A DNA stretch of 64,000 nt from Parcubacteria group bacterium Gr01-1014_30 (GTDB lineage Bacteria; Patescibacteriota; Minisyncoccia; Minisyncoccales; 2-12-FULL-40-12), in the NCBI GenBank assembly GCA_007376185.1, contig VMFS01000001.1, forward strand, positions 10,768 to 74,767, given 5' to 3'. The notes under the pieces were generated by a model that had not been told where the DNA came from, did no database searches, and was given only the letters and a program-made list of their open reading frames with translations. A program made the position numbers and the translations under genes. Shown in pieces: positions 11,847 to 59,631 of the stretch (position 1 is its first letter; each line of letters opens with the position of its first letter).

Positions 11847-12479
11847 ATGAGGCAGCCGAGAAGCTTTAGCAAAGATAGTTTTTGGCACGTTCTTAACCGC
11901 GGAGTAGCTAAAGAAAGCATCTTTCGCGAGAAAGGAGACTTTATCTTTTATCTTTATAAAATAAAAGAGCTTATTAAGAAGTACCCCGTGGGAATTCACT
12001 GTTATAATTTTATACCTAATCACGTTCACTACTTATTAAAACAAACGACTGACGTACCTCCTGGCAAATTCATTGGCAGCCTTCACACAAGCCTAGGGAT
12101 TTATATTAACAAAAAATACTCTCGTTCTGGCCACTTATTTCAAGATAGGTATAAAGCAAGGCCTCTGGGAGAAGAAGCTCTGTTGCCAGTATCTGTTTAC
12201 ATTAATCTGAATAAAGTTCTTGAACAGACTCAACACGTTCAAGAGAAACGAATTTCAAAAAACCAGTTAAATAAACTACTAGAAGAAGCAACAACAGACC
12301 CCTGGAGCAGTTATGCTGTTTATTTAGGACTAAGAGAAGACGGTATTACAGATAGTAAGTTCATTTTATCCTTACTATCCGACGATATTCAAAAAGCTCG
12401 CAAAGAGTATAAAAAACTGGCAGAGGAACTTATCACTTCTGGCTTCTTCTTGAAAACGCGCGGCATCGTTTTCGACTAG
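11847..12479 (+). mobile_element. IS200/RAYT-like Y1 (HUH) transposase gene
   Basis: 210 aa. FWHVLNRGV..., HUH motif NHVHYLLKQ, and LFQDRYKARPL containing the catalytic-type Tyr. Flanked by GGACTGTCCC-containing hairpins. Confidence 0.75.
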
Positions 12480-30319: not shown

Positions 30320-31042
30320 ATGCCGGAAAAAGCTAGGTTCAAAAGAATACTGCTTAAGTTGTCGGGCGAAACCTTGGGAGGGCGGGGAGGTTTTGGTCTT
30401 GACGTAAAAGCGGCTGAATACATAGCCGGAGAAATTAAGTCATCGAGCGACCTCGGCTGCCAAACTGCAGTTGTCATCGGCGGAGGAAACTTTGTTAGAG
30501 GAGAAAAATTATCCCACTTTGGCGTTGACCGCTCAACAGCAGATTACATGGGCATGCTTGGAACCGTGATTAACGGCTTGGCTTTGCAGAGCATACTTGA
30601 AAAAAAATTCGGCTTGGCAACGAGAGTCATGACGTCTTTTGAGATGAAAGCGGTGGCTGAACCATTCTTTCGCCGTAGGGCCTTGAGGCACCTTGAAAAA
30701 GGTAGAGTTGTAATTTTTGCCGGAGGCACGGGAAGCCCTTATTTTTCCACGGACACGGCAGCTGCGCTCCGCGCCTCGGAAATAGAATCTAAAGTTATTT
30801 TGAAAGCCACCAAAGTAAGAGGAGTTTACGAGAGCGACCCTAAAACCAACAAAAACGCCAAGTTCCTGCCGTCTATCTCCCACCTTGATATGGTAAAAAT
30901 GGGGCTAAAAGTAATGGATTTGACCGCCTTGACCTTAGCTATGTACAACAAAATTCCGGTAATTGTGTTTGACGTTTTTAAAAAGGGAAATTTGGTAAAA
31001 CTTCTGCTTGGACAAAAAATTGGAACTGAGATACGAGGGTAA
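30320..31042 (+). CDS. pyrH: UMP kinase
   Basis: RILLKLSGETLGG, VVIGGGNFVRG, GTGSPYFSTDTAAALRA. Confidence 0.95.
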   Translation: MPEKARFKRILLKLSGETLGGRGGFGLDVKAAEYIAGEIKSSSDLGCQTAVVIGGGNFVRGEKLSHFGVDRSTADYMGMLGTVINGLALQSILEKKFGLATRVMTSFEMKAVAEPFFRRRALRHLEKGRVVIFAGGTGSPYFSTDTAAALRASEIESKVILKATKVRGVYESDPKTNKNAKFLPSISHLDMVKMGLKVMDLTALTLAMYNKIPVIVFDVFKKGNLVKLLLGQKIGTEIRG

Positions 31043-31295: not shown

Positions 31296-31865
31296 ATGAA
31301 AAGGGGAGAAAACTTTGAAATAGTCGTTTCAGGTGCGGCTCATATGACGCACTGCTGTTCAGGCATTAAAGAACTGTCTAAGGAAGTGGGGCGAGAAGTT
31401 GCTCGCCAGGGCTGCAACTTGGTTACCGGCGCCACCACTGGAGTCCCTTACTACGCGGCTCAGGGATGCAAGAGTGAGGGCGGTTTTTCCATTGGTTTTT
31501 CTCCAGCTTCCTCCGAAAAGGAACACTTAAAAACATACCGCCTGCCTTTGGACGCTTTTGATGTTATGATTTACACGGGCGCCGACTATGTGGGCCGCAA
31601 CGTTCTTATGACAAAATCGGCCGACGGCGTAATAATAGTTTGCGGCAGAATAGGCACTCTGCACGAATTTGCCACGGCCTTTGAGATTCAAAAGCCCATT
31701 GCGGTTTTAGAGGGCTCTGGCGGCACCGCCGACAAAATAAGGCAGCTTGCTTTGGGGCCTCACCGCGGCTTCACGAAAATTATTTACGAAAGAAGCCCAA
31801 AAGAACTGGTTAAAAAACTTATAGCCTTGGTTAAGGCAGAGAAAAAGAACAACCACAAGGTATAA
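31296..31865 (+). CDS. TIGR00725/LOG-like (SLOG) Rossmann-fold protein
   Basis: 189 aa. GATTGVPYYAAQG and IVCGRIGTLHEFATAFE (GGxGTxxE-like). Confidence 0.7.
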   Translation: MKRGENFEIVVSGAAHMTHCCSGIKELSKEVGREVARQGCNLVTGATTGVPYYAAQGCKSEGGFSIGFSPASSEKEHLKTYRLPLDAFDVMIYTGADYVGRNVLMTKSADGVIIVCGRIGTLHEFATAFEIQKPIAVLEGSGGTADKIRQLALGPHRGFTKIIYERSPKELVKKLIALVKAEKKNNHKV

Positions 31866-32633: not shown

Positions 32634-32917
32634 TGGAAAAAGCCAAGGCGCACATTTTTGTTTCTGGAAGTGTACAAGGCGTTCTTTTTCGCGACAGCGC
32701 CAGGAGAAAAGCCCGGAAGCTTAAGGTAAAGGGCTGGGTTAGGAACTTGCCAGACGGCAGAGTGGAGATAATTGCTGAAGGAGAAAAAGACAGAGTTGAA
32801 CAAATGATTAATTGGGCAAGAACAGGCACAATTTTAGCAAGGGTTGACAATGTTGACTTTGAGTTTGAGGAATATAAAGGAGAGTTTGACGACTTTGAAA
32901 TAAGGTATGCCCCGTAA
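32633..32917 (+). CDS. acyP: Acylphosphatase
   Basis: VSGSVQGVLFRDSARRKARKLKVKGWVRNLPDGRVEI. Confidence 0.9.
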   Translation: MEKAKAHIFVSGSVQGVLFRDSARRKARKLKVKGWVRNLPDGRVEIIAEGEKDRVEQMINWARTGTILARVDNVDFEFEEYKGEFDDFEIRYAP

Positions 32918-32989
32918 TACAACTTCCAGTGCGTTTTTCCAAAGAGAAACACAAAACCGCCGGAGGCGACTGGAAGATGATATACGGGG
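32910..32989 (+). repeat. Hairpin element, copy 1 (CCCCGTAATACAACTTCCAG ... GCGACTGGAAGATGATATACGGGG)
   Basis: The termini are identical to the reverse complement of 34891-34960; the interior differs. Confidence 0.7.
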
Positions 32990-33320: not shown

Positions 33321-34565
33321 ATGCAATTCGTCGCTGACTTTCATATACACTCAAAATACTCGAGAGCGACCTCAAAGGAGATGAACTTGGAACAGCTTGA
33401 CAAGTGGGCAAAGCTAAAAGGCATTAAGGTTTTAAGTTGTGGCGACTTCACGCATCCAGAATGGTTCAAAGAGCTGAAAGAAAAATTGGAGGAACAAGAG
33501 CCCGGGCTTTATAAACTGAAGAATTCCGCCAGCGGCACCAGGTTTATTCTTACGACAGAAATCAGCTGTATTTACTCAAAAAAAAATAAAGTTCGTAAAA
33601 TCCACATTTTGATTTTCGCTCCTTCGCTTGAGTCGGCGGAAAAAATTAACGCTAACTTGAGCTGGATAGGCAACCTGAAAGCTGACGGCAGGCCCATTTT
33701 GGGAATTGACGCAAAAGAGCTGGCCAAAATTGTCTTGAACGTTTCAGAAGAATGTTTAGTCGTTCCGGCTCATGCGTGGACGCCTTGGTTCAGCATCTTC
33801 GGGTCAAAATCCGGTTTTGACTCAATTGAAGAATGTTTTGAAGAATACTCCAAATATATTTACGCCATTGAAACAGGTTTATCAAGCTCGCCAGGTATGA
33901 ACTGGCGGTTGTCGACTCTAGATAAAATAACTCTTATTTCAAACAGCGACAGCCACTCTGCCAGAAAAATAGGCAGGGAAGCAAACGTTTTTGACACAGA
34001 ACTTTCTTTTGCCGCAATCGCTGAAGCTATAAAGAATAAAAACCCGCAAAAACTTTTATACACGGTTGAGTTTTTCCCCGAGGAAGGAAAATACCATTGG
34101 GACGGCCATCGTCTTTGCCAAGTAAGTTTGGCGCCTGAGGAGTCAAAAAAATCACAAAACATTTGCCCAAAATGCGGTAAAAACTTAACGATCGGTGTGC
34201 TGAACAGGATTGAGGAATTAGCCGACAGGCCAGATGGTTCAAAGCCACCCCAAGCCATCCCCTTCAAAAGCTTGATTCCTTTAGAGGAAATAATTGCCGA
34301 CGCTCTGGGCGTATTGCCAGGCGCCAAACAAGTTGAGTCTGAATACAAAACCTTAACTGAAAAATTTGGTTCTGAGTTTGAAGTTTTGCTGAACGTTTCT
34401 CGCCAAGATTTAGAAAAGGCCTCATCTTCAAAAATAGCTGAAGGCGTTGAAAGAGTGCGAGAGGGCAAAGTTCAAATTTCTCCGGGCTACGACGGTGTTT
34501 ACGGGAAAATTAAAATTTTCTCTGAAGGCAAACCAGCACCGTCAAGTCAAAAGTCGCTTTTTTAA
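33321..34565 (+). CDS. Endonuclease Q-like PHP-domain nuclease
   Basis: 414 aa. DFHIHSKYSRATS, VPAHAWTPWFS, SNSDSHS, GKYHWDGHR, and zinc finger CPKCGKNLTIGVLNRIEELAD, collinear with archaeal/Bacillus EndoQ. Confidence 0.8.
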   Translation: MQFVADFHIHSKYSRATSKEMNLEQLDKWAKLKGIKVLSCGDFTHPEWFKELKEKLEEQEPGLYKLKNSASGTRFILTTEISCIYSKKNKVRKIHILIFAPSLESAEKINANLSWIGNLKADGRPILGIDAKELAKIVLNVSEECLVVPAHAWTPWFSIFGSKSGFDSIEECFEEYSKYIYAIETGLSSSPGMNWRLSTLDKITLISNSDSHSARKIGREANVFDTELSFAAIAEAIKNKNPQKLLYTVEFFPEEGKYHWDGHRLCQVSLAPEESKKSQNICPKCGKNLTIGVLNRIEELADRPDGSKPPQAIPFKSLIPLEEIIADALGVLPGAKQVESEYKTLTEKFGSEFEVLLNVSRQDLEKASSSKIAEGVERVREGKVQISPGYDGVYGKIKIFSEGKPAPSSQKSLF

Positions 34566-34576
34566 CTTTTATAAAC

Positions 34577-34604
34577 CAAAAACCCCGCTATAAGCGGGGT
34601 TTTT
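34577..34604. terminator. Bidirectional terminator between convergent genes
   Basis: A6-CCCCGCT-ATA-AGCGGGG-T5. Confidence 0.7.
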
Positions 34605-34621
34605 GCGCTGCTCGCGAGATA

Positions 34622-34825
34622 CTAGAATCTCCTAGGTCTGCTGTCACGAAACTTTCTCATGCAGTCCTGACACCTGATGGTGTCCAAGCGCGCCGGGTCT
34701 GGCTGAAAAGGCAGTTGGGTAACCGGAGTTCCGCAGTCCTTGCATTTGATGTTCATTTCGGTTACGTCGTACATCTGCCTTTGGAAGCCGCCTGAGCGGT
34801 TTTCGTCAAACTTTTGAAATGCCAT
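34622..34825 (-). CDS. CxxC...CxxC zinc-ribbon protein
   Basis: 67 aa. CKDCGTPVTQLPFQPDPARLDTIRCQDC. Matches a family common in CPR genomes. Confidence 0.7.
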   Translation of the reverse strand: MAFQKFDENRSGGFQRQMYDVTEMNIKCKDCGTPVTQLPFQPDPARLDTIRCQDCMRKFRDSRPRRF

Positions 34826-34890
34826 GTAATTTGAGTGTTAAATAAAAAGCGACCTTTTTTGACTTCTAAGCCGCTTTCTACTTAACTTTG

Positions 34891-34960
34891 CCCCGTATAT
34901 CATCTTCCAGTCGCCTGCGGCGATTTGCGCGCGGAGCGCGCTGGAAGTTGTATTACGGGG
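34891..34960 (-). repeat. Hairpin element, copy 2 (inverted relative to copy 1)
   Basis: CCCCGTATATCATCTTCCAGTCGC ... GCTGGAAGTTGTATTACGGGG. Confidence 0.7.
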
Positions 34961-35308
34961 CTTTGGCTTTTTAAGCTTACTTAAGATATCCAACGACTTA
35001 TACTGTCTAGAGCCATTATACACTACTCAAAAGAAATGTCAACTGCTCTGTGTATCTTTACAGTACGGCTCGAAACCATTTTCTGAAAAATTGCTAACGC
35101 AATTTTGAAACTTCTCCAAATCCGCTCGGGTGCGGCGGAAGGAGGGGGCAAAAAGAAAAAGGGATAATAATTTGGAAAGAAATTCGCGAAGTTCTTTTTT
35201 CGTTTTGGCTTGATTATTATTGACATTTCTTGTAATGTGATTTTGGTATTAAGCCCGATTGTCGGGCTTAAATCGTACATTCCCAACTAAAAACAGGAGG
35301 ACAGCGAC

Positions 35309-36148
35309 ATGAATGACCGAAACTTCCGACAGATGCTGGAAGCCCAGTGGTCTCGCGGCAATTTCGTCTGCGTCGGACTCGACAGCGAGTTTGGCAAGAT
35401 TCCAGAATCGGTAAAAACGGATCGTCGGGAGGACTACATAGAGACCGTAGTTGACTTCAACAACAAGATCGTTGAGGCAACGAAAGACCTCGTGTGCGCC
35501 TACAAGCCGAACGCCGCGTTTTACGAGGCGCACGGCGTAGAGGGTATGAGAGCTTTGCGCCATACGATCGAGAACATCCATCTGATGGCGCCAGACGTTC
35601 CGGTGATTCTCGACGCGAAGCGCGCGGACATCGGCAATACCAACGCGGGCTACGTGGATGCGGCATTCGGCTTTCTGCGTGCGGACGCAATCACAGTGCA
35701 TCCGTATCTCGGAGCCGAAGCGCTTCAGCCATTCCTCGCACGAGCGGAGAAGGGTGTCATCGTGCTTTGTCGCACTTCCAATCCGGGCGCGGGCGAGTTT
35801 CAGGATTTGTCCGTGAACGGCGAGCCGCTCTATCGCTTCGTCGCGCGTCGTGTAGCAAGCGAGTGGAACAAGAACGGCAACTGCGCGCTCGTCGTGGGCG
35901 CAACGTATCCCGATGAACTCCGCGAAGTCCGCGGACTCGTCAGCGATATGCCGATTCTCATTCCGGGCATCGGCGCGCAAGGTGGCGACGTGGAGAAGAC
36001 CGTTTCCGCGGGCAAGAACAGCCGCGGACAGGGCATGATCGTGAACTCCTCGCGTGGCATCATCTTCGCCTCGAAAGGCGCGGACTTCGCGGAAGTGGCT
36101 CGACGCGAGACCGAGAAGCTCCGCGATCTCATCAACCAGCACCGATAG
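35309..36148 (+). CDS. pyrF: Orotidine 5'-phosphate decarboxylase (long, type 2)
   Basis: 279 aa. NFVCVGLDSE, ILDAKRADIGNT, PGIGAQGG. SD AGGAGG at 35295-35300. Confidence 0.9.
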   Translation: MNDRNFRQMLEAQWSRGNFVCVGLDSEFGKIPESVKTDRREDYIETVVDFNNKIVEATKDLVCAYKPNAAFYEAHGVEGMRALRHTIENIHLMAPDVPVILDAKRADIGNTNAGYVDAAFGFLRADAITVHPYLGAEALQPFLARAEKGVIVLCRTSNPGAGEFQDLSVNGEPLYRFVARRVASEWNKNGNCALVVGATYPDELREVRGLVSDMPILIPGIGAQGGDVEKTVSAGKNSRGQGMIVNSSRGIIFASKGADFAEVARRETEKLRDLINQHR

Positions 36149-36163
36149 AAAGGAGGTGAAATC

Positions 36164-36799
36164 ATGAACGAGCAAGAAGTTCTGCAAGTCCTCGGCAAGG
36201 TCGGAGCGGTCATCGCCGACAGCCACATCGTCTACACGTCAGGGCTACACGGCACGGCATACGTCAACAAGGATGCGGTCTATCCGCACACTGCGGAAAC
36301 GTCCCGCCTCTGCCGCGCAATCGCCGAGCGGTTCGCGGATGACAACGTGCAAGTGGTCATCGCCCCAGCAATCGGCGGCGTGATTCTCTCGCAGTGGACG
36401 GCACATCATCTCTCCGAAATGAACGGCCACGAAGTGTTCGGAGTCTACGCCGAGAAGTCCGAAGGCGGAGACGCCTTCGTCATCAAGCGTGGCTACGACA
36501 AGCTCATCGCTGGCAAGAATGTTCTGGTGGTGGAAGATGTTCTCACCACTGGCGGCTCTGCCAAGAAAGTGGTCGAAGCCACGCGAGCCATCGGCGGCAA
36601 CGTCGTTGGTCTCGGAGTCCTCTGCAACCGCGGAGGAATCACGCCGCAAGATGTGGCAGACGTTCCGAAGCTCACATCGCTCGTGAACGTGAAGCTCGAC
36701 GCGTGGGACGAGGCAACTTGTCCGCTTTGCGAGCAGAACGTTCCGGTCAACACGGATGTCGGCAAGGGGCGCGAGTTCCTCGCACGCAAGCAAGCATGA
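36164..36799 (+). CDS. pyrE: Orotate phosphoribosyltransferase
   Basis: 211 aa. PRPP-binding motif VLVVEDVLTTGGS. SD AAGGAGGTGA at 36150-36159. Confidence 0.9.
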   Translation: MNEQEVLQVLGKVGAVIADSHIVYTSGLHGTAYVNKDAVYPHTAETSRLCRAIAERFADDNVQVVIAPAIGGVILSQWTAHHLSEMNGHEVFGVYAEKSEGGDAFVIKRGYDKLIAGKNVLVVEDVLTTGGSAKKVVEATRAIGGNVVGLGVLCNRGGITPQDVADVPKLTSLVNVKLDAWDEATCPLCEQNVPVNTDVGKGREFLARKQA

Positions 36800-36817
36800 A
36801 TCCGCAACGGGTTCCAC

Positions 36818-36856
36818 GGGTTCGCTATCGTAAGGTAGCGAACCCTTTTTCTTTTT
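36818..36856 (+). terminator. Rho-independent terminator after pyrE
   Basis: GGGTTCGCTA / TAGCGAACCC 10-bp stem followed by TTTTTCTTTTT. Confidence 0.75.
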
Positions 36857-36880
36857 GTAGAAATTTCAAGGAGCAAATTT

Positions 36881-36933
36881 ATTGCGAAAACAAATTTTTT
36901 CAGCTATCATTTAGTTGTATTTGTTTTCGCAAT
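36881..36933. repeat. Perfect 15-bp inverted repeat
   Basis: ATTGCGAAAACAAAT (36881-36895) and ATTTGTTTTCGCAAT (36919-36933), with a 23-nt loop. Confidence 0.7.
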
Positions 36934-37127
36934 TGTCGGCGCAGAGTAAATCAAGCTATACACTTAAATTACTCTCAATGAGCTTGTCCAACAGCTTAGA
37001 GGGCGGGGCGGGTCTACCTTGGGGTGGTTATACAACAGACCCAGGGCTCCTGTTCCCCTCCTTTAGGAGGGTGGACAGGAGAACTCGCGAAGCGAGTTTA
37101 ATTAACGAAGTAATTTTGCGGGCTCTA

Positions 37128-37583
37128 TTATAGCGGGCAATCAACCACTGCCCAGCCGCCGTCTGCCAAACCAGTCCACTCCATTACTCCGATTACATCA
37201 AAGAACAAGCTGACAATTATCCAAGCGGCGTAAATCAAAACCAATCCGATTATTGTCCAAGTGAAGGTTTGCTTGGCTCTTGAAAGCAAAGCTGGACCCC
37301 CCTCTCCTCCCTTTGCCACCACGCCAAAGTAGGCAAACACATACATAAACCCGCCGATGGCTATCATTAAAATGGCTAAGGGTGGAACAATCCTGGTTAA
37401 AAGGTACTGAACTACGTTTTGGAAAAGAACAAAGATGTGACAAAGCTGACACGCTGGCTCATCTTGCCCTCCGCAAGGCACGAGCCCAGCCGCAAAAGAA
37501 ACCAAAGGCATGAGCAAGATTCCCAGAATAATCGTTATAAACAAAATTGAAAATTGAAAATTGAAAATTGAAAATTTCCCCAT
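37128..37583 (-). CDS. VirB2/TrbC-like 'pilin' membrane protein
   Basis: 151 aa. Signal-like N-terminus, Cys pairs (CGG..ACQLC), and two long hydrophobic helices around a GGEGGP loop. Same architecture as the N-termini of ORFs 57367 and 62762. Confidence 0.6.
   Translation of the reverse strand: MGKFSIFNFQFSILFITIILGILLMPLVSFAAGLVPCGGQDEPACQLCHIFVLFQNVVQYLLTRIVPPLAILMIAIGGFMYVFAYFGVVAKGGEGGPALLSRAKQTFTWTIIGLVLIYAAWIIVSLFFDVIGVMEWTGLADGGWAVVDCPL
37543..37577. repeat. Heptanucleotide tandem repeat (AAAATTG x4 plus AAAATTT) inside codons 3-14 of the pilin-like gene
   Basis: Read directly. The coding strand is ATTTTCA x4, giving FSIFNFQFSI. Confidence 0.85.
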
Positions 37584-37659
37584 GGTGCGCCTGGTAGGAT
37601 TCGAGCCTACAGCCTGCGGTTCCGAAGACCGCCGCTCTATCCGGTTGAGCTACAGGCGC
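37583..37659 (-). tRNA. tRNA-Arg (anticodon UCG), CCA encoded
   Basis: GCGCCTG-TA-GCTC..GAGC-G-GCGGT-CT[TCG]GA-ACCGC-AGGCT-GTAGG-CTCGAAT-CCTAC-CAGGCGC-A-CCA. Confidence 0.9.
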
Positions 37660-37699
37660 GCAAGCCTACTCTACCACAAAAATTGAAAAAAACAAGAAA

Positions 37700-37815
37700 A
37701 TCAATTAGAATTAGGAATAAAGAATGGGAATTTTGAATAAAGAATTTAGAGAAACCCCCTTTATTCTGAACCCTATATTCTCACCCTTAATTCTTAATTC
37801 ATAATTCTGTATTCT
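37700..37815. repeat. GAAT-word palindromic intergenic element
   Basis: AGAATTAGGAATAAAGAATGGGAATTTTGAATAAAGAATTTAGAG ... CTTTATTCTGAACCCTATATTCTCACCCTTAATTCTTAATTCATAATTCT. Arms are imperfect. Confidence 0.45.
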
Positions 37816-39443: not shown

Positions 39444-39517
39444 GGGCCATTAGTATAGTGGCAATACACCGCATTCGCATTGCGGAGACGTGAGTTCGAT
39501 TCTCACATGGTCCACCA
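39444..39517 (+). tRNA. tRNA-Ala (anticodon CGC), CCA encoded, G3:U70
   Basis: GGGCCAT-TA-GTAT..ATAC-A-CCGCA-TT[CGC]AT-TGCGG-AGAC-GTGAG-TTCGATT-CTCAC-ATGGTCC-A-CCA. Confidence 0.9.
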
Positions 39518-39583
39518 TTTCAGATTTGGGTCGGAAGTTGCCTCGCGGAGTTTATCCCGCACCGAGCTTGCTCTGGTGCGGGG

Positions 39584-39669
39584 CTCGGCGACCAAATCAT
39601 AAGGTTTTCTGGGCGAAAAAACCAGTTGGCGATTCTGTTTTTGGGAAAAGAAAATTTTTAATCATATAT
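39584..39669 (+). repeat. Cassette left-boundary / leader element, copy B
   Basis: CTCGGCGACCAAATCATAAGGTTTTCTGGGCGAAAAAACCAGTTGGCGATTCTGTTTTTGGGAAAAGAAAATTTTTAATCATATAT|ATG. Matches 10844-10926 (-). Confidence 0.65.
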
Positions 39670-40185
39670 ATGCAAGAAAATTTTTACGATATTTTACCGT
39701 ATATAGTTCTAGTTTTGGTTATTATATCTTTCATAGAGAATCGTAATCGTATTATAGAAAAAGAAAAGGCATATACTTTTTTCAAACAAACAAAAAAGTT
39801 TTTTGTACTTTTCGCAGTCATTCAAAGTTCAATACTCTTATATCTACACTTTTTTGTATATCCGACACTCAACAATGCTTTTAGTGAATCTAATTCTACT
39901 TCTTTTCTTCTAAAAATCAGTCCTTACTCAACTTTTGTCATTATTCCCATTGTAATTGCTGTTACTCTCTTTGCTTATTTTTCAAAATCCATTGCGCAGG
40001 AGTTTGAAGAAAACCTAAAAAAGCATAAAGATGATGTAAAGATTAAGATTAGTGATCTAACCACTGGAAAACTTAAATTATTAATTAATTTAGTAATGTA
40101 CTTACCTCTTTTTGTCATAGTACTTTTTGTGCTTATACCTGGTTTCCAACTAATTTCAGTTGCATCAAATTGGCGGTTAAAGTAA
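39670..40185 (+). CDS. Small polytopic membrane protein (hypothetical)
   Basis: Start reset to MQENFYDILPYIVLVLVIISF; the listed ORF start at 39490 lies inside tRNA-Ala. AT-rich. Confidence 0.55.
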   Translation: MQENFYDILPYIVLVLVIISFIENRNRIIEKEKAYTFFKQTKKFFVLFAVIQSSILLYLHFFVYPTLNNAFSESNSTSFLLKISPYSTFVIIPIVIAVTLFAYFSKSIAQEFEENLKKHKDDVKIKISDLTTGKLKLLINLVMYLPLFVIVLFVLIPGFQLISVASNWRLK

Positions 40186-40189
40186 TTAT

Positions 40190-40597
40190 ATGAAAAAATT
40201 GATACTTAAATATCCTTTGGCTACTTGGATGAGTATAGGATACTTAATTTTTATCGCGATCTTATTTATCGGCATTTTTCTAAACCGTTTTGCTGTATTT
40301 GGTGAATTTGGAGACGCACTTAGTATGACATTTTTCCTTTGGCCATATCCATTAGTCCTAGCTTTGCAAACTTGGATAAATCCTAGTGGTATCAATTTTT
40401 TGTTATTTGCATATCCTCTTGGGCTTGGCTTGGTCATTTTTTTCGGATTTTACTTACAACGACTGCTTAAAATTTCTAATGAGTCACCGTATTCTCATGT
40501 GTGGTCAATTTTGTTATTTCCCATTCCTTTAATACTATTGCAGGTTTTTGTTGCTGGGTTTGTATATTTTGTTTTGGGTTTACCGATTGGGGAGTAA
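40190..40597 (+). CDS. Small polytopic membrane protein (hypothetical)
   Basis: 135 aa with about 4 hydrophobic helices. No family recognised. Confidence 0.5.
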   Translation: MKKLILKYPLATWMSIGYLIFIAILFIGIFLNRFAVFGEFGDALSMTFFLWPYPLVLALQTWINPSGINFLLFAYPLGLGLVIFFGFYLQRLLKISNESPYSHVWSILLFPIPLILLQVFVAGFVYFVLGLPIGE

Positions 40598-40630
40598 TTT
40601 TTTAATCATGGCCTGTCACCTTTAACTATT

Positions 40631-40975
40631 ATGGAAGACACACCAAGTAATAACCAAAATCAACAATATTCTTCAAAGCCGGGAAAGATTCTTGCATATC
40701 TTTTTCTTAGTGCTTCAGTGGTAGTTTCTGGTTTGTTCTTTTTTAGTAAATGGGCAATTAACGCAGAATCATTTGGAAAATATGATCTGGGCTATGGGAT
40801 ATTTTTTTCATTTGTTTTTGCTTCTCTCATTTATGTCTCCTTGGGACTTGCCTTTCTTAGTTTTCTGGCAGCGCTGATAAATTTTTTCCGCCATCGCCCA
40901 GTTCGAATATATCTTTTGAGCATGGTTCTTGCATTGTTACCGATGGGCTATCTATTTTTGATTGATATAATATAG
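40631..40975 (+). CDS. Small membrane protein (hypothetical)
   Basis: 114 aa with 3 hydrophobic helices after a polar N-terminus. Confidence 0.5.
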   Translation: MEDTPSNNQNQQYSSKPGKILAYLFLSASVVVSGLFFFSKWAINAESFGKYDLGYGIFFSFVFASLIYVSLGLAFLSFLAALINFFRHRPVRIYLLSMVLALLPMGYLFLIDII

Positions 40976-40982
40976 GGATAAG

Positions 40983-41148
40983 TATTTTGCCGCCAAAGAA
41001 AAACTTGAAATTGTCCTCAGTAGTAGAAGCTACGCTTCACTACGGGTCAGGCATTAGCGCGGCGGAGCCGCAACTTCGGAATTTCGCGGGAGGCTTTCCT
41101 CGCCGCCTGCGGCGGCGAAAACCGTCCGAACTATTTCAAGAATAGACC
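40983..41148 (+). repeat. Cassette right-boundary element, copy B (with an extra internal segment of about 45 nt)
   Basis: TTGCCGCCAAAGAAAAACTTGAAATTGTC ... TTCGGAATTT ... CTCGCCGCCTGCGGCGGCGAA ... CGTCCGAACTATTTCAAGAATAGACCA. Confidence 0.65.
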
Positions 41149-41149
41149 A

Positions 41150-41995
41150 TAAGAGTTATCCACATTGAACCCACAGACCTTCAGAAGGCCGCATAAAATC
41201 TATATTTTCAAGGCCCTCTCAATCCCCGAGACGAGCCTGATTTTCGGGAACTAGACCCCTGGGGATAAGTTGAACCGGTGACGCTGGTCAGGTATCGGCT
41301 GATTGTGAAGTACATTGAGGCGATGCGCGACTGGGAGTTGTGCCCTTGTTGAATTCTGACGCCGTGCTATTCTCAAAGTAGTGAATGAAGGACTTCTGGG
41401 CGCCCCACAGATGATCACTTGTATCGTCATGTCAGCGAACGGTGGCCCTAGGCCAAGCTTGCCAACATCCGTTTGTTTGGTGCTACGAGGTGCGCGATCT
41501 CCTTCGAAGCGTCCCTGATACAACATATGTCCAAACGAGCTCTAAAGATCTCACTAATCGTCCTTATCGTTGCGGCCGCAGCCACAGTGATCTTGATGAC
41601 CAGGACCGAGAAGCCTCTCGAGTCGCCGCCGGATTCCAAAGATCTCATCCGAGATTCCTCTGTCACCGACTCAAACCGCACCGTTTCAAATCGTCAGGCT
41701 GACCTGTCAGTCCGCAATGAGGACGCTATATCGCGCTCACGTGGTCTCCTGAGGAAAGCGCAATTGAATATGCTGTTTCCGCGCTCTCTCGATAGACGGT
41801 CCCTGGGAGGAGCTCTTTCGGAGGCCTGGCGCTCGACCCAATAGTGTCGATTTCACGCCGGAAGCCACCGAGCGAGAGCTGTGTTATAAGGTCGAGGGTC
41901 TAGATGCGAGCGGCAAGATGATTCGCGGTTACGAACCAGTCTGTGTGCCGCCATTCGTGGGAAGCCACAGCCATGAGGAGTAAAGTGAGTTCTGA
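41150..41995. other. GC-rich fragment 3 (compositionally foreign; boundaries approximate)
   Basis: GC visibly higher than the AT-rich cassette on its left and the aminotransferase gene on its right. Confidence 0.5.
41527..41983 (+). pseudogene. Frameshifted gene for a membrane-anchored protein (hypothetical)
   Basis: The first frame reads MSKRALKISLIVLIVAAAATVILMTRTEKPLESP.... A protein-like continuation ...DGPWEELFRRPGARPNSVDFTPEATERELCYKVEGLDASGKMIRGYEPVCVPPFVGSHSHEE* lies in the +1 frame with no start codon of its own. Confidence 0.35.
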
Positions 41996-45074: not shown

Positions 45075-45683
45075 ATGAAAACAGTTTCAGGATCTAATAA
45101 GTCAAATTCTGATACCAACGAAAGTATTTCAGAGCAAAGCTCTACTTTAAGCGGCTTTAAGAATTGGAGACTAAAACACCCTATTTTATGGGCGGTTATA
45201 CTATCTGTGGCATTAATATTTATTACGAGATATATTGTCTATAATATTCCAGAGCTGGATTTACTCTATAGGATTACTCTATGGTTTATTGCGCCTATCC
45301 TTGTATTCGGTGCAATATATAAGCATTTGGCAAAAAGGCCTAAAGATATAGCAACTGACAGCTTAGAGGATGTCAATAGAATAAATAGAAAGCAGGCAAT
45401 TTTACTTCTTTTGCTACTTGCGTTAGAAATGCCATTGTTGCTTCTAAATTTATACGTGTTTATTGGTAACAAAGGCAGTATTTATGGAGATTATGGCGTT
45501 TTAACGTTTATATTCGGACTTACTTTATTTATGCCTAGTCTAATAGCCTTTATTATATTTCTACTCGGATATATAAAAGGAACTTTTAGACATTGGCAAC
45601 AACTAAGCAAGTATAATAGAGCGAGTTTCTTTATATTCTTATTTCAGTTCGTATTGTATTTAAAATTTCTAAACTATTTTTAA
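45075..45683 (+). CDS. Polytopic membrane protein (hypothetical)
   Basis: 202 aa, AT-rich, 4-5 TM helices. Confidence 0.5.
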   Translation: MKTVSGSNKSNSDTNESISEQSSTLSGFKNWRLKHPILWAVILSVALIFITRYIVYNIPELDLLYRITLWFIAPILVFGAIYKHLAKRPKDIATDSLEDVNRINRKQAILLLLLLALEMPLLLLNLYVFIGNKGSIYGDYGVLTFIFGLTLFMPSLIAFIIFLLGYIKGTFRHWQQLSKYNRASFFIFLFQFVLYLKFLNYF

Positions 45684-45684
45684 G

Positions 45685-46635
45685 ATGGATAAAGCGGCTT
45701 TCGTTGTATTAATAATTGTAACCGCCCTTTTAGGAGGAGGCATTATTTACTTTCACATAATTAGCAATACTCCCGCAGAAGATTTAATGGGTGTTGATTC
45801 AAATAATAATGGCGTAAGAGATGATGTTGAAGACTATATCAATAGTAAATTTTCAAAACCAGAAGAAGGGGAGGCATTAATGCAGTATGCCAAAAGGCTT
45901 CAACTACAAATGGCCTCTTATCAAAACCCTGAAGAATCTAACAGATTGAGAGTATCGTCTGATGATAGTTATATTGATTGCGCTGAATATATTTTTGGTC
46001 AAGATAGGGCATTTGATTTAACAGATGAGATAAATGAGGTTGTTATTAATACCCCAAGCAGGCAAAGAGCTTATGACCAATTTAATAGAAATCTTACTGG
46101 TGGGGTATTTGGTCTAGGAGAAGAGCCATCTATAAGTGATTGCGAATTCTACAATGACTTGATTGATGATTGGAAGCTTTATCGTAACGAGGAATATGGC
46201 TTTGAGTTTAAATATCCCGAACTGGGATTAAACCCAGCCGAGATTAATCAAGTCGGAAGCATGATAGAAGTTAAGTACTGGAGCGAACAACTAGATGAAC
46301 ACAGCCTCGTCTATACTATTTCTATAACAGAAAATGAGCAGGGTTTGGATCTATTTAACTGGTATACAACTAATATTGACCCGGAACGCATAGTCTACAA
46401 AAATTTAAATATTGATATTATACGGTTAAAGAGTGGCGCTGAAATGTATAAAATAAATACAAAAACGAAGCCAATTCCTAATGAATACCTAGATAAATAT
46501 GGGCCCATAGACGCTTTGGCCTATATTATGACTCCTGATGAGCGGTTTGTGTTAACAATATCTGGAAACCAAGAGACAGGCCTTAGCGATAAGGATCTAG
46601 ATCTAATTGTTTCAACCCTCAAATTCATTAAATAA
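45685..46635 (+). CDS. N-terminally anchored protein with WxxYRNxxYGFEFKYP domain
   Basis: 316 aa. The C-terminal module (DDWKLYRNEEYGFEFKYP...) is paralogous to the one in ORF 9983-10843. Confidence 0.55.
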   Translation: MDKAAFVVLIIVTALLGGGIIYFHIISNTPAEDLMGVDSNNNGVRDDVEDYINSKFSKPEEGEALMQYAKRLQLQMASYQNPEESNRLRVSSDDSYIDCAEYIFGQDRAFDLTDEINEVVINTPSRQRAYDQFNRNLTGGVFGLGEEPSISDCEFYNDLIDDWKLYRNEEYGFEFKYPELGLNPAEINQVGSMIEVKYWSEQLDEHSLVYTISITENEQGLDLFNWYTTNIDPERIVYKNLNIDIIRLKSGAEMYKINTKTKPIPNEYLDKYGPIDALAYIMTPDERFVLTISGNQETGLSDKDLDLIVSTLKFIK

Positions 46636-49231: not shown

Positions 49232-51352
49232 ATGACAGATTATAAATTGGAAATGGGCGGCAGAGAACTTGTTGTAAATATGAATGAACTTGCCGAAATG
49301 GCAAACGGCAGCTGTTCAGTCAGGTATGGAGATACCGTGGTCCTGAGTACGGCCGTGATGTCTCAGCAAGAGCGCGACCTCGGCTTTTTCCCATTAACCG
49401 TGGACTATGAAGAAAGATATTACGCCGCAGGCAAAATCTTGGGCTCAAGGTACATCAGACGAGAAAGCAGGCCTTCAGACGAAGCCATACTGACCTCACG
49501 CCTGATTGACAGGGCCATAAGGCCTCTTTTCCCGCCGCGGTTGAGAAAAGAGATTCAGGTGATTTTAACCTGCCTGTCCTGGGACAGAGAAAACGACCCT
49601 GACATTTTAGGGCTCATGGGCGCGTCTTTGTCTCTTTCGGTCTCAAACATTCCCTGGTCAGGACCCGTGGCTTGCTTGAGAATAGGCCGCGAACAAGGAA
49701 GCTTGATTTTGAATCCGACCTACAAACAAAGGGAAGCAAGCGATTTGGATTTGGTTTTGGCCGGCGTGGAGAGAAGAGGGGAAATTTTTGTCAATATGAT
49801 TGAAGCTGAAGGAGACCAGATACCAGAAGAAATCATATTGGCAGCTTACAAGTTCGCCGAGCCAGAATTAAAAAAAATTATCGCCTTCCAAAACAAAATT
49901 GCCGAGGACTTGGGCCAAAAAAAGGCCTCTTTAAAAGAGAGTAAACCCGACTTGGAGCTGGAAAAAGAAATTAAAAAATTCCTTGGAAAACGGCTTAAGG
50001 AAGCTCTCTTTAACCAAGGCAAAAAAGAACGGGGGACGAATGTCAACGAACTCAAAGAAGAGCTGGCTCATTTCATTGAAAGTGAACACGAGGGAGAAAA
50101 CAAGACAGAGTTGGCCAGAGAGTTTTTTGAAAAAGAGATTGATAAATTAATTCACCAAGAAGCTATAAAAGAAGAAAAGAGGGTTGACGGCAGAAAGTTG
50201 GATGAAATTCGTCAAATCAGCACCCAAGTCGGGCTTTTGCCAAGAACTCACGGCTCAGGCCTCTTTCAGAGAGGGCAAACCAAAACACTTTCCATACTCA
50301 CGCTCGGAGCTCCCGGAGACGTTAAACTTCTTGAAGGAATGGAAATAGTGGGCAAAAAAAGATTTATGCACCACTACAACTTCCCGCCTTATTCTGTTGG
50401 CGAAGTGAGACCTTTGAGGGGGCCAGGCAGAAGAGACATCGGCCACGGCATGCTCGTGGAAAAAGCGCTCCTGCCCGTAGTGCCAGACGTTGACCAATTC
50501 CCTTACACCATCAGAGTGGTTTCGGAGATCCTCTCTTCAAACGGGTCAACATCCATGGCTTCTTGCTCGTCAGCCTCTTTGGCCTTAATGGACGCCGGAG
50601 TGCCAACTTCAGCTGCGGTTGCCGGGATTTCCATTGGGTTGATGCAGGAAGGTCGCAATTACAAACTTTTAGTAGACATTCAAGGACCAGAAGACCACCA
50701 CGGAGATATGGATTTTAAGGTGGCCGGCACCAAAAACGGCATTACCGCAATTCAAATGGACGTTAAGATTGCAGGAATAAGTAAAGAGGTTTTAGAGGAA
50801 TCTTTGTCTCTGGCCAAAAAAATAAGAATTCAAATTTTAGACAAAATGGCGCAAACCTTGCCCTCACCGAGACAAAAGCTTTCTCCCCTAGCCCCGAGAA
50901 TCTTAACCCTTCAAATCAACCCGGAGAAAATCAGAGAAGTGATTGGACCTGGCGGCAAGGTAATAAACAAAATAATACAGGACTGCGGCGTTTTAATTGA
51001 CATTGAGGATTCGGGGCTCGTCTTTGTCACCTCTGAAAAAGAGGAGTCGGCTCTGCAAGCCCTCGACTGGATAAAAAATATCGTGAGAGAAGCAAAACCC
51101 GGAGAGGTATTTGAAGGCAAGGTGAAAAGAATTCTTGACTTTGGAGCTTTTGTTGAAATACTGCCCGGGCAAGAAGGAATGATTCATATTTCGCAACTGG
51201 CGCCCCACAGAGTTCGCAGAGTTGAAGATGTGGTAAAAGTTGGAGACACTGTTCAGGTAAAGGTACTTAACATTGATGAGCAAGGAAGGATAAACTTAAC
51301 CCTTCTCCAAGGAAAACAAAATACTAAAGCGCAAATCATAAGCTCAAAATAG
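49232..51352 (+). CDS. pnp: Polyribonucleotide nucleotidyltransferase (PNPase)
   Basis: 706 aa. Two RNase PH domains, then KH (VIGPGGKVINKI) and S1 (GEVFEGKVKRILDFGAFVEILPGQEGMIHISQL). Confidence 0.95.
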   Translation: MTDYKLEMGGRELVVNMNELAEMANGSCSVRYGDTVVLSTAVMSQQERDLGFFPLTVDYEERYYAAGKILGSRYIRRESRPSDEAILTSRLIDRAIRPLFPPRLRKEIQVILTCLSWDRENDPDILGLMGASLSLSVSNIPWSGPVACLRIGREQGSLILNPTYKQREASDLDLVLAGVERRGEIFVNMIEAEGDQIPEEIILAAYKFAEPELKKIIAFQNKIAEDLGQKKASLKESKPDLELEKEIKKFLGKRLKEALFNQGKKERGTNVNELKEELAHFIESEHEGENKTELAREFFEKEIDKLIHQEAIKEEKRVDGRKLDEIRQISTQVGLLPRTHGSGLFQRGQTKTLSILTLGAPGDVKLLEGMEIVGKKRFMHHYNFPPYSVGEVRPLRGPGRRDIGHGMLVEKALLPVVPDVDQFPYTIRVVSEILSSNGSTSMASCSSASLALMDAGVPTSAAVAGISIGLMQEGRNYKLLVDIQGPEDHHGDMDFKVAGTKNGITAIQMDVKIAGISKEVLEESLSLAKKIRIQILDKMAQTLPSPRQKLSPLAPRILTLQINPEKIREVIGPGGKVINKIIQDCGVLIDIEDSGLVFVTSEKEESALQALDWIKNIVREAKPGEVFEGKVKRILDFGAFVEILPGQEGMIHISQLAPHRVRRVEDVVKVGDTVQVKVLNIDEQGRINLTLLQGKQNTKAQIISSK

Positions 51353-57366: not shown

Positions 57367-59631
57367 ATGGCCCAAAAAACCAAACTTATTACTCTTTTTG
57401 TCTTGTATTTTCTTTCTATTTCTTCTCTCACTCCTGTTTTGGCACAAGAGAGGGGGTTGGAAGTTGACTACCCGGAAGTTTTTGGGGACCAACCCCAAAA
57501 CGTAACCACCCTCCTCCCTGAGTACGTAAAATATTTATTCGGTTTGGGAATCTGGCTAGTGGGCTTGGTAGCTTTCGGAGCAATGGTTTGGGGAGGCATA
57601 ATTTGGCTGACTGCCTCTGGCAGCCCTGAAAAGATAAAAGAAGGCAGAGACCGCATAACTTCGGCTTTCTTGGGAATAATAATCCTGCTTGCCTCTTACA
57701 TAATACTCAATATTATCAACCCGCAACTGATTTCTTTTGACGTGCGGCCTCTGCTTGGCATTCCCACAGAGCCAAGGACCCCACCCCCTCCTCTTGAACC
57801 AGATGAAATTACTCTAATCGCCAAAGAAATACCTCTTGGCCAGGTCTTGGAACGAGGAGTTTGGGAGCAAGAAAGAACAAACCGGATAAGAACGATTTTT
57901 GAGCAGCTTAATGCGTTCCTGCAAGAAGAAATAACGAATAACCCGCGCATAAACCGAATTTCGGATTTGCAAAAATACCTCAAAAAACTTACCGAGGATT
58001 GCCAGTGCGGCTTGATGGACGCTTTTTCAGCCGGCCCCTGGCAGGGCGGAGGCGGAGTCGCCTGCACAGGAGAGCCGTGCCCGGAAGAAAACTTGGAAAA
58101 AATACGGGAAATTCTTGACGTCAACGAAGAAAAAGTAAGGCGGCTTGTTGGGTTCCGCCAACTGCTAGCCCAAGAAAAAGAATTGCTTGAAACCGCCTTG
58201 TCCCGTTTAGCCGACATAGAGCAAGACATAAACGATTGTCAAAACGCCTCGGGCGGCATTTACTCTTTGGCCGAATACTCAAACTTGGCCCAGTTTTACG
58301 AGGACTCAGGCAGTAAAACAGCTACAATAGAAAACCCTTACTACGCAAGCAGGGCTGACCCTCTAACTTTTTACTGTCCGACGGGAGGAACCGCTTTTGA
58401 CTTCCCTTACGCGGCCGAAGTTGACCTTTCCCTTAACGAGCCCATTCCCTTTGAGGCCTCGGCCGACTTTGCTTTTGAACAAATAAGTTGCCCTGTTGAA
58501 ATACCGGTTGGCGAGGTCTTGGACGGCCTGCGCCAAGAAGCAATTTTGCTTTCAATCAAAATGGAAAAGTCAATATTGCTGATTGACGATCTAACCCGAG
58601 AGCTCGCCAGAATTTCCGACCTGATAGACCAGTTCAATGGAAGCCAGTGCGAAGTTTCAACCGGCTGCTTTCGTCCTCCTTTTTTCTTTTTCCTGCCGTG
58701 CCTTCAAGTACTCGGAAGCTGCACTGGCACTCCCGGACCCAGAGACGAGCTCGCTGACGCCGTGCAATCAGTAAAAGAGGCCGAAGACGAACTCCTGCTG
58801 ACAATAGAGCAAACAAAAGAAATATTCCCGAAAGTTGACTTTTTAATAAGGTCTCCTCAAAACCCAATTAACCTGCAAAACGTCAGAACTTCGGTTCAAC
58901 TGGCTTCCAGTCCTTACAAAGCCGGCGAGTTTGGGCCTGAACAAGATTGGGTTTTGTTAAACTGCGAGGAAGCTGTTGGCAACGTTGGCCCTGACGGCCT
59001 GACAATCGCCTCGTGCCAACCGAGAAATTTTTACGCCTGTACGTCAACCGGAGCCACAGAGCCAGCTTTCCCGTCTGTGATTAAAGACAGACCAGCCACC
59101 ATTATACCTGAAAAGCAATACGAGCCCTTAGAGGCCGCCTCGGACAACTGTCCCGAGGGTTGGCTGTGCAACCGAGACGTAACCTTCTACAATCAATACA
59201 CAGACGCCTCAGAGCCGGTAAAACAGCTGCTTTCCTGCATGAGACAACGTTTGGACAGGGTTGAAGAAGAAAAAGAGCTGGAAGGAACGCTTGGCCGCAT
59301 AACCAGCATTTCAGACAGCAAGCTGACCATAGGAACTTGCGACTGGGGAGCGGGGCCCTCGGAGCCTGGCGGCTGCAGTCACACTTACACCGTACGCCAG
59401 GGCCGAGAATCAGTTTCAGCTCACTACGGCGGCTCTCTTTGCCGTTACCAAAAAACGTCTTATGCCATTGACGTAGGGGCTAGAGAACCTCTGGAAAAAA
59501 GATACGCTGAAGAAATAATTGCAGCCGCCAAAGAATGCGCTCCCGCAGCTTGGATAGGTTACCAGATTCCGGGCCACTATGAACACATACACATAAGTAT
59601 TGGCAGGGTCAATCAGTGCGGAGCAAATTAG
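57367..59631 (+). CDS. Pilin-like (VirB2/TrbC-type) N-terminus fused to a large Cys-rich ectodomain with C-terminal LAS/M15-like zinc-peptidase motifs
   Basis: 754 aa. Signal peptide ..TPVLA/QE, LPEYVKYLF, two TM helices around TASGSPEKIKEGRDRI, INPQL. Module DCQCG...GEPCPEE plus coiled coil. C-terminus SAHYGG...YAIDVG...GHYEHIHIS (SxHxxG..AxD..ExxH). Confidence 0.6.
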   Translation: MAQKTKLITLFVLYFLSISSLTPVLAQERGLEVDYPEVFGDQPQNVTTLLPEYVKYLFGLGIWLVGLVAFGAMVWGGIIWLTASGSPEKIKEGRDRITSAFLGIIILLASYIILNIINPQLISFDVRPLLGIPTEPRTPPPPLEPDEITLIAKEIPLGQVLERGVWEQERTNRIRTIFEQLNAFLQEEITNNPRINRISDLQKYLKKLTEDCQCGLMDAFSAGPWQGGGGVACTGEPCPEENLEKIREILDVNEEKVRRLVGFRQLLAQEKELLETALSRLADIEQDINDCQNASGGIYSLAEYSNLAQFYEDSGSKTATIENPYYASRADPLTFYCPTGGTAFDFPYAAEVDLSLNEPIPFEASADFAFEQISCPVEIPVGEVLDGLRQEAILLSIKMEKSILLIDDLTRELARISDLIDQFNGSQCEVSTGCFRPPFFFFLPCLQVLGSCTGTPGPRDELADAVQSVKEAEDELLLTIEQTKEIFPKVDFLIRSPQNPINLQNVRTSVQLASSPYKAGEFGPEQDWVLLNCEEAVGNVGPDGLTIASCQPRNFYACTSTGATEPAFPSVIKDRPATIIPEKQYEPLEAASDNCPEGWLCNRDVTFYNQYTDASEPVKQLLSCMRQRLDRVEEEKELEGTLGRITSISDSKLTIGTCDWGAGPSEPGGCSHTYTVRQGRESVSAHYGGSLCRYQKTSYAIDVGAREPLEKRYAEEIIAAAKECAPAAWIGYQIPGHYEHIHISIGRVNQCGAN

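Follow-up and report, generated by a model that had tools for sequence, protein, structure and literature searches.

Genes for tRNA and tmRNA are integration sites of genomic islands and islets, some of them integrase-less elements mobilisable in cis, while mobile insertion cassettes and other palindrome-associated non-autonomous elements carry passenger genes that are moved in trans. The gene cassettes of integrons mostly have no promoter of their own and carry at their end an attC site, which has RYYYAAC and GTTRRRY cores. Among leaders of pyrimidine genes, the PyrR-binding attenuator (RF00515) and the UTP-sensitive pyr leaders are known. Horizontally acquired metabolic islets are already known as a kind, and Patescibacteria, the candidate phyla radiation (CPR), are thought to live on host-derived nucleotides. 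Here we describe a pair of adjacent genes, pyrF and pyrE, with predicted products orotidine-5'-phosphate (OMP) decarboxylase and orotate phosphoribosyltransferase (OPRT), from Parcubacteria group bacterium Gr01-1014_30, a metagenome-assembled genome in which the pair lies on a 163-kb contig. The portion of the genome analysed, referred to as the window, was a stretch of 64 kb with 60 open reading frames (ORFs). Our analysis indicates that the segment from about 35050 or 35150 to 36943 is probably an acquired expression cassette for the conversion of orotate to uridine monophosphate (UMP), belonging to a family that is exchanged among Patescibacteria and occasionally across phyla.

De novo nucleotide synthesis is reported to be missing in 93% of Patescibacteria genomes and present in about 7%, and marker genes of nucleotide biosynthesis, a set that includes OMP decarboxylase, are phylogenetically scattered in the group (bioRxiv 10.64898/2026.06.21.733656). 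Our literature search returned no papers connecting orotate, pyrE or pyrF to Parcubacteria, CPR or Patescibacteria, and the searchable literature held no description of an insulated pyrF-pyrE cassette with a leader, swappable decarboxylases and a tRNA/tmRNA-proximal habit.

Composition and distribution of the pyrF-pyrE cassette

The original prediction, made from the letters of this DNA, had described a GC-rich pyrF-pyrE island with strong Shine-Dalgarno (SD) sites on both genes, a strong terminator of its own and an antisense shadow ORF, placed between a copy of a hairpin element and a tRNA-Arg-linked pilin-like gene, and had proposed that the unit was acquired. All of these features were recovered (Table 1). 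GC content was 0.525-0.555 in the 1-kb bins of 35001-37000 in comparison to 0.443 for the whole window. pyrF had a GC content of 0.590 and a third-codon-position GC content (GC3) of 0.721, and pyrE had values of 0.599 and 0.726, in comparison to means of 0.432 (sd 0.051) and 0.455 (sd 0.085) for the remaining 58 ORFs, a deviation of z ~3.1-3.3 that places the two genes at ranks 2 and 3 among the 60 for GC3 and codon-usage distance. Codon usage was alien as well: AGA and AGG together serve 61% of arginines in host genes but 3% in the cassette, whereas the share of CTC among leucine codons rises from 9% in the host to 69%, that of ATC among isoleucine codons from 17% to 77% and that of AAG among lysine codons from 27% to 83%. 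The 325-aa antisense ORF is not a gene; it is a by-product of high GC, as it results from the sense-strand GC3 of 0.72.

Duplex energy with the anti-SD sequence was scored for each of the 60 genes over the 22 nt ahead of its start and reached -10.3 kcal/mol for pyrF and -18.9 kcal/mol for pyrE, whereas just one of the other 58 genes (12844-13452) reaches -9 kcal/mol and the majority are weaker than -5 kcal/mol. The cassette genes thereby own two of the three strong SDs in the window, where several genes appear to be leaderless or to lie behind TATAAT-like boxes.

The distribution of the unit was surveyed in 80 related loci taken from GTDB species representatives and numbered with the prefix L. 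Flanking genes share almost no homologues among the CPR loci, whereas the Chthoniobacterales loci are syntenic around pyrF-pyrE. Among the 22 loci with a PyrE at least 75% identical, pyrE GC exceeded flank GC in every case, with a mean excess of +0.109 across host GC contents of 0.33-0.55 and a slope of 0.27. More distant cassettes are more ameliorated (excess +0.05, slope 0.73), and Chthoniobacterales pyrE shows no GC offset. With regard to the question raised by the original prediction, namely whether the closest relatives would share both lineage and composition with the host, the relatives do lie in CPR genomes, but composition is discordant in all 22 of these close loci. Identity within single loci is likewise discordant, with PyrE and a neighbouring host protein being 96% and 47% identical to their window counterparts in L001, 92% and 52% in L006, 81% and 61% in L016, 73% and 37% in L029, and 71% and 45% in L038. 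The syntenic Chthoniobacterales set served as a vertical calibration: there the identity of PyrE is 63-84%, about equal to or lower than that of its neighbours, and as it is no more conserved than they are, hyper-conservation is not an intrinsic property of PyrE.

More than 40 cluster representatives match the window PyrE at 90% identity or above, the best at 97%, and its named relatives include Taylorbacteria (92%) and Liptonbacteria (87%). For native proteins of the window, the best non-self match is 83% for PyrH (74-75% for named Sungbacteria matches) and 78% for the flanking PHP protein. Host relatives were sampled by scanning with this PHP protein (66-78% identity), which gave 80 metagenomic loci totalling 749 kb. 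Neither pyrE nor pyrF occurs in any of these 80 loci, 43 of which extend at least 2.5 kb beyond the PHP gene. Gene order upstream of PHP is kept among them and the order downstream varies; the exact empty site was not recovered from this set. A cross-phylum copy of the cassette with 78% DNA identity, leader included, was found in a diderm 'Oligoflexia' genome, where it lies between tRNA-Gly and unrelated genes, with BamA, Skp, FabZ and LpxA encoded nearby, and has a GC content of 0.537 in comparison to 0.406 for its flanks. The foreign composition, the portable expression signals, the near-identity across divergent hosts and the purifying selection described below are direct observations, and horizontal acquisition of the window cassette is well supported by the non-synteny, the GC excess, the within-locus discordance, the low synonymous divergence (dS) and the absence from 80 host relatives.

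Compositional outliers were also seen elsewhere in the window. The single other gene with a strong SD, at 12844-13452 (-), is a 202-aa ORF with a GC content of 0.62 and a GC3 of 0.80 that has no Pfam, NCBIfam or PHROG match, although its family counts 329 cluster representatives at E<=1e-3 and 64 at E<=1e-30. It adjoins an insertion sequence (IS) 200-like Y1 transposase gene at 11847-12479 (+) that is bracketed by GGGACAGTCCC palindromes in a REP/RAYT-like arrangement. A link between this transposase and the cassette was considered and rejected, the flanking palindromes being unrelated to the cassette ends. A GC-rich stretch at ~40980-41850 (0.53-0.55) holds ORFs without a family match and has no Rfam match; 68 nt of it (40986-41052) are 95.6% identical to L001 10708-10775, directly behind the L001 cassette, and the stretch may represent a further small element shared between genomes, or an RNA not yet described. 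AT-rich blocks at 39490-40975 and 45075-46635 (GC ~0.33, GC3 ~0.29), with ORFs that have no or marginal family matches, add to the compositional mosaic of this genome.

Putative regulatory parts, module exchange and placement

DNA identity to the cassettes in L001-L004, L008, L010-L013, L018 and L068 is 75-91% over both genes and reaches into non-coding DNA, upstream over 35149/35205-35310 and downstream from 36800 to ~36860-36943. The upstream conservation begins at 35149 in L003, L068 and L001, at 35166 in L002 and at ~35205 in L008, L010, L011, L013 and L018. Outside this limit lies an element of ~100 nt that is found again only beside the closest cassettes, where its side and its orientation vary: it is on the same side in L003, which has one extra copy, and inverted and downstream in L002 and L004. 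It folds stably (z -3.3) and was not found in the 80 host-relative loci or in IMG/VR. The left arm of a perfect inverted repeat (Table 1) coincides with the left limit of conservation with L003, L068 and L001, and a second pair of arms (35094-35109 and 36854-36869) matches at 14/16 positions (p ~0.006 by shuffling). These inverted repeats are interrupted, of low complexity and overlap the terminator tail, and no target-site duplication was seen with them.

Table 1. Coordinates of the pyrF-pyrE cassette, its parts and its immediate flanks in the window.
Feature	Position	Strand	Remarks
Host hairpin repeat, outside the cassette	34890-34961	.	second copy at 32909-32989, 80% identical
Cassette-associated element, ~100 nt, sharp outer end (GTGTATCTTTACAGTACGGCTCGAAA...)	35050-35148	+	
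Left arm of 15/15 inverted repeat	35149-35163	.	partner is the terminator tail, 36843-36857
A/T-rich hairpin with T-run, terminator- or insulator-like	35176-35206	+	palindrome, upstream of the promoter
Putative promoter, TTGATT-17 nt-TAATGT	35210-35238	+	conservation across cassettes
Conserved 5' leader, ~64 nt	35244-35308	+	hairpin, box, A-rich spacer, SD
Leader hairpin	35249-35271		
Leader single-stranded box AAUCGUACAUUCCCAAC	35271-35287		followed by A-rich spacer and SD
Antisense shadow ORF, 325 aa	35249-36226	-	overlaps pyrF and pyrE, both with strong family matches
pyrF SD, AGGAGG	35295-35300	+	8 nt ahead of pyrF ATG
pyrF, predicted type-2 orotidine-5'-phosphate decarboxylase, 279 aa	35309-36148	+	TIGR02127, PF00215
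pyrE SD, AAGGAGGT	36150-36157	+	6 nt ahead of pyrE ATG
pyrE-like, predicted orotate phosphoribosyltransferase of Thermus/Helicobacter type, 211 aa	36164-36799	+	TIGR01367 (below cut-off), PF00156
Intrinsic terminator, 12-bp stem (36818-36845), 4-nt loop, T-run	36818-36857	+	
Downstream module with 15-bp perfect hairpin (36881-36895 / 36919-36933)	36858-36943	+	right conservation limit
T4SS-pilin-like gene	37128-37583	-	matches PF18895 and TrbC
tRNA-Arg(tcg)	37583-37659	-	pilin-like gene directly 3' of it

The A/T-rich hairpin upstream of the promoter has a conserved stem and a variable loop in L001, L002, L003 and L068; a strict terminator scan, which needs at least three GC pairs, gave no call for it. 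The putative promoter was assigned from conservation, and its transcription start site is a predicted one. TTGATT-17-TAATGT is the best promoter fit across clades, an alternative pair (TTGACA at 35220-35225 with TGGTAT at 35244-49) is likewise conserved across cassettes, and a consensus promoter scan scored the cassette promoter below threshold. At the 3' end, the terminator is the only good plus-strand call in 34500-37700, and its stem is preserved by compensatory changes in L002, L004, L008 and L010. The module behind it is retained in L002, L004 and L008, with a part of it in L003.

The leader that precedes pyrF was not part of the original prediction, and the same is true of the swapped pyrF types and the family-wide association with tRNA and tmRNA genes described below. 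A covariance model (R1) built from 23 leaders was searched against both strands of 1.2 Mb, where it matched only cassette leaders, giving 25 matches at E < 0.05, four of them outside the seed, and 66 bits on the window leader. Double changes in the leader stem numbered 20 in comparison to 7.0 +/- 2.1 in shuffled alignments (0/500 as high) and compensatory changes occur in all five modelled stem pairs, in an alignment that was fitted to the model and hence leans towards the structure. The leader folds with a z of -2.55, and its minimum free energy fold includes a weak UUCC helix pairing with the SD that is missing from the centroid structure. No relevant Rfam match was obtained at E up to 1 for the leader or the flanking elements in 34550-37700. 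The leader may act in regulation, in transcript stability or in another way.

Between the same leader and the same pyrE, type-2 and type-1 pyrF genes alternate. The Taylorbacteria loci L002 and L003 have a leader and pyrE of the window type (88-91% DNA identity) with a GC-rich type-1 pyrF between them, and homology to the window breaks off almost exactly at the start codon and sets in again at the pyrE SD, a sequence (AAGGAGGT) that is also kept in cassettes carrying type-1 pyrF. L068 and L012 are mosaics in which divergence differs among the cassette parts. The leader is kept in L001, where pyrF is reduced to a 3'-end remnant, and in L038, which has no pyrF. These swaps, mosaics and remnants indicate that cassettes recombine with one another. 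In these leader-bearing regions of L001 (9720-10001) and L038 (9792-10001), a short coding-like stretch with a CxxC motif was also observed to precede or extend pyrE.

In 19 of 69 loci, and in 18 of these on the same strand, the cassette is preceded by a tRNA or tmRNA gene whose end lies no more than 300 nt upstream. From the loci's own tRNA density ~2.6% would be expected, and only 1/76 loci have such a gene downstream. Many different tRNAs are involved, tmRNA being used by the Chthoniobacterales and by one Kaiserbacteria locus, and orphan tRNA 3' fragments cluster upstream of cassettes as well. The pair is found 50-233 nt downstream of ssrA in the Chthoniobacterales loci L035, L037, L039, L041 and L044 and in Kaiserbacteria L046; in the Chthoniobacterales these ssrA-adjacent pairs are syntenic and compositionally native. 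In the Kaiserbacteria locus L014 (262-3730), a 26-nt repeat of the tRNA-Lys 3' end lies 1.8 kb beyond pyrE, in the manner of a classical attachment-site (att) signature. The islet so bounded holds type-1 pyrF, pyrE and an AT-rich 462-aa beta-lactamase-like gene and no integrase. When tRNA 3'-end repeats were sought systematically downstream of the tRNA-adjacent cassettes, only L014 was positive.

On the right of the window copy, the pilin-like gene and tRNA-Arg are the native flank, the adjacency of pilin and CCA genes being present in the host relative L144 also. The pilin-like gene begins at the last base of tRNA-Arg, and a second gene with the PF18895 type IV secretion system (T4SS) pilin domain lies at 57367-59631, coding for a 754-aa protein. 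On the left, a perfect sigma-70 consensus promoter (TTGACA-16-TATAAT, 12/12) at 35015-35042 (-) faces a Zn-ribbon gene at 34622-34825; it lies 8 nt outside the cassette-associated element and therefore helps to delimit the insertion.

Predicted function and competing explanations

The pyrF product matches TIGR02127 with 250.4 bits (cut-off 110.6) over residues 6-262 of 279 and PF00215 with 109 bits (cut-off 27), and its top match among solved structures is the OMP decarboxylase domain of the Leishmania UMP synthase (3qw3, E 7e-54). The Asp-x-Lys-x-x-Asp motif and an upstream Lys are the catalytic residues of OMP decarboxylase; the DAKRxD motif is intact in PyrF, and ILDAKRADIG and AYKPN align with the Leishmania structure. 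For the pyrE product TIGR01367 is the top family by a wide margin, the PRPP-binding loop VLVVEDVLTTGGS that is a signature of the type-I phosphoribosyltransferase (PRT) fold is intact, and the PDB matches are 4paw (OPRT, E 7.5e-12), 2p1z (deposited only as 'Phosphoribosyltransferase') and 5hkf (OPRT). pyrE is directly linked to pyrF in 51 of the 80 loci, with a type-2 gene upstream in 30 and a type-1 gene in 21, and this genomic context is the strongest argument that the pyrE product would act as an OPRT. Both genes are under purifying selection (dN/dS 0.08-0.21 for pyrF and 0.05-0.2 for pyrE). Enzymatic activity as read from these matches would have PyrE and PyrF convert orotate and phosphoribosyl pyrophosphate (PRPP) to OMP and then to UMP, which the native UMP kinase may take further, and scavenged orotate is a plausible substrate.

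Genes for the earlier pyrimidine steps (pyrB, pyrC, pyrD and carAB) are not among the 60 ORFs of the window. A scavenging repertoire is present, comprising an HD-domain nucleotidase-like gene (2853-4004), a NUDIX gene (7127-7588), the UMP kinase gene (30320-31042) and genes for a SLOG/LOG-like protein (31296-31865) and polynucleotide phosphorylase (49232-51352), and agrees with the RNA-feeding model put forward recently for Patescibacteria.

Several observations count against reading the unit as an acquired and mobile orotate-to-UMP cassette, and they are weighed here with the alternatives. As regards origin, the window copy has no tRNA gene adjacent upstream, the nearest being 784 nt downstream on the opposite strand with a native gene between. 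Our searches found no att-like direct repeat or target-site duplication at the window cassette, and no integrase or transposase beside it or among 10 downstream neighbour ORFs of other loci. Carriage by phages or plasmids was considered and rejected, as IMG/VR gave no close PyrE relative, GenBank phages one match of 23% and PLSDB matches of at most 34%. An assembly chimera, with a fragment of a GC-richer organism spliced into the Parcubacteria contig, would fit the abrupt compositional switch at both borders, the metagenomic origin of the assembly and the repeats near the left border; it would need two joins 1.9 kb apart, in a segment that is internal, more than 27 kb from the window ends and surrounded by host-type DNA on both sides in the 163-kb contig, and the same cassette occurs, again surrounded by low-GC DNA, in dozens of assemblies made independently by different studies with different assemblers, so that we give this explanation almost no credence. 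Alternatively, the genes could be native and vertically inherited, with GC content, codon bias and SDs shaped by selection (e.g. high expression) and similarity kept by purifying selection. The family is indeed widespread in Patescibacteria with low dN/dS, and a few cassettes lie near homologues of window genes: those of L001, L006 and L029 near homologues of the 31.3-33.3 kb genes and that of L016 beside CCA. Some vertical persistence in a variable region is possible. For the window copy, however, an identity of 80-91% extends to the non-coding DNA of the leader and the terminator, pyrE dS against L001-L004 and L068 is 0.26-0.5, much lower than hosts with neighbouring proteins of 37-61% identity would allow, and Chthoniobacterales PyrE, which is inherited vertically, is neither hyper-conserved nor GC-shifted. 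The lack of the cassette in every host-relative locus and its presence in a diderm genome also speak against strict vertical descent, which we regard as highly improbable. The combined evidence from synteny, GC content, discordance, dS, relatives and the cross-phylum copy makes both the chimera and simple vertical inheritance very unlikely.

As regards function, the pyrE product scores 118.7 bits against TIGR01367, under the cut-off of 150.25, databases name the protein a 'phosphoribosyltransferase family protein', and in 19 of the 80 loci, each of these 19 with at least 1 kb of upstream sequence, the gene stands without an adjacent pyrF, loci that fit poorly with a strict two-step unit. A PRT of other specificity, in a unit that does not simply lead from orotate to UMP, is nevertheless improbable, as the top family and the solved-structure matches are OPRTs (apart from the general deposition title of 2p1z) and the frequent link to an OMP decarboxylase of either type is hard to explain unless the product is OMP. 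A weightier alternative, though one we still consider unlikely, is that a horizontally acquired cassette supplies the final steps of an ordinary de novo pathway, with pyrB, pyrC, pyrD and carAB elsewhere in the genome. Orotate salvage is judged from 64 kb of this genome, a minority of Patescibacteria do have de novo synthesis, and the homologous pair presumably works within a full pathway in Chthoniobacterales and Alphaproteobacteria. Against this stand the occurrence of the earlier steps in 0/60 window ORFs, the large majority of the phylum without the pathway, the scavenging genes in the window and the fact that only the last two pyrimidine steps travel together.

The original prediction had looked to phylogeny for the donor lineage, but our neighbour-joining tree of PyrE is star-like at depth and names none, a further point that weakens the case for acquisition. 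Clades of Verrucomicrobia, Alphaproteobacteria and Bdellovibrio-like bacteria are nested in this tree among CPR sequences that are themselves scattered. The closest cassette copies come from Taylorbacteria, Wildermuthbacteria and further Paceibacterota, and it is in CPR genomes of 52-55% GC that copies come nearest to compositional equilibrium. Rather than being a single import from an evidently foreign lineage, the window cassette belongs to a family that occurs mainly in other Patescibacteria, and the source was most likely another Patescibacterium of higher GC content.

Under the reading that we favour, that of an acquired orotate-to-UMP cassette, the unit would be arranged as a terminator-like hairpin, a promoter, a structured leader, SD-led pyrF, SD-led pyrE and a terminator. 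Such cassettes would insert between genes at unrelated sites, very frequently right behind the 3' end of a tRNA or tmRNA gene, and recombine as modules by swapping the pyrF type or forming pyrF/pyrE mosaics. With no recombinase in cis, the candidate routes of transfer are an enzyme acting in trans at tRNA 3' ends and recombination after DNA uptake. The wider proposition of a phylum-crossing 'metabolic patch' for nucleotide auxotrophs, combining a new leader RNA, decarboxylase exchange and trans-acting recombination at tRNA/tmRNA 3' ends, is offered as a tentative one that is possible rather than probable. If the reading is correct, a portable cassette for the last two steps to UMP would point to orotate as a traded metabolite and to recent gene flow within a radiation that is usually viewed as genomically static. 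The promoter, leader, SDs and terminator evidently work in SD-poor CPR hosts and would be useful for genetics there, and two concrete leads open to testing are the leader RNA and the placement near tRNA and tmRNA genes.

Comparison with described systems

In comparison to genomic islands integrated at tRNA genes, the cassette is likewise compositionally foreign and patchy in occurrence, its family is biased to positions 3' of tRNA/tmRNA genes on the same strand and one member (L014) is bounded by the tRNA 3'-end repeat of 26 nt. It differs in its size of ~1.9 kb, in the lack of an integrase beside the window copy and in 10 other loci checked, and in the use of many tRNAs by the family, the window copy itself being neither tRNA-adjacent upstream nor flanked by direct repeats. 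The likeness to mobile insertion cassettes is suggestive at most: the passenger genes are framed by short inverted repeats and subterminal hairpins, with no transposase inside, and an IS200-like Y1 transposase gene is encoded elsewhere in the window. The pyrF-pyrE inverted repeat is, however, short and interrupted, it overlaps the terminator tail and it comes without a target-site duplication. Like integron cassettes, the unit is small and modular, has one or two genes, occurs in many genomes and exchanges modules. Unlike them it owns a promoter, a leader and a terminator, its 3' hairpin is without RYYYAAC and GTTRRRY cores, and no integron integrase was seen for it.

The leader resembles the PyrR-binding and UTP-sensitive leaders in being a conserved structured 5' region ahead of pyrimidine genes, but with ~64 nt, one hairpin and a box it has no terminator/antiterminator pair. 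Fused UMP synthases (NF004034; PDB 3qw3/3qw4) comprise the same two enzymes with the decarboxylase first, whereas the window genes are separate and score 159 bits against NF004034, for which the cut-off is 656. A native syntenic pyrF-pyrE pair of the same subfamilies as in the window is found in the Chthoniobacterales. Unlike such native operons, the pair described here stands apart from the other pathway genes as far as the window shows, is foreign in composition and is probably mobile.

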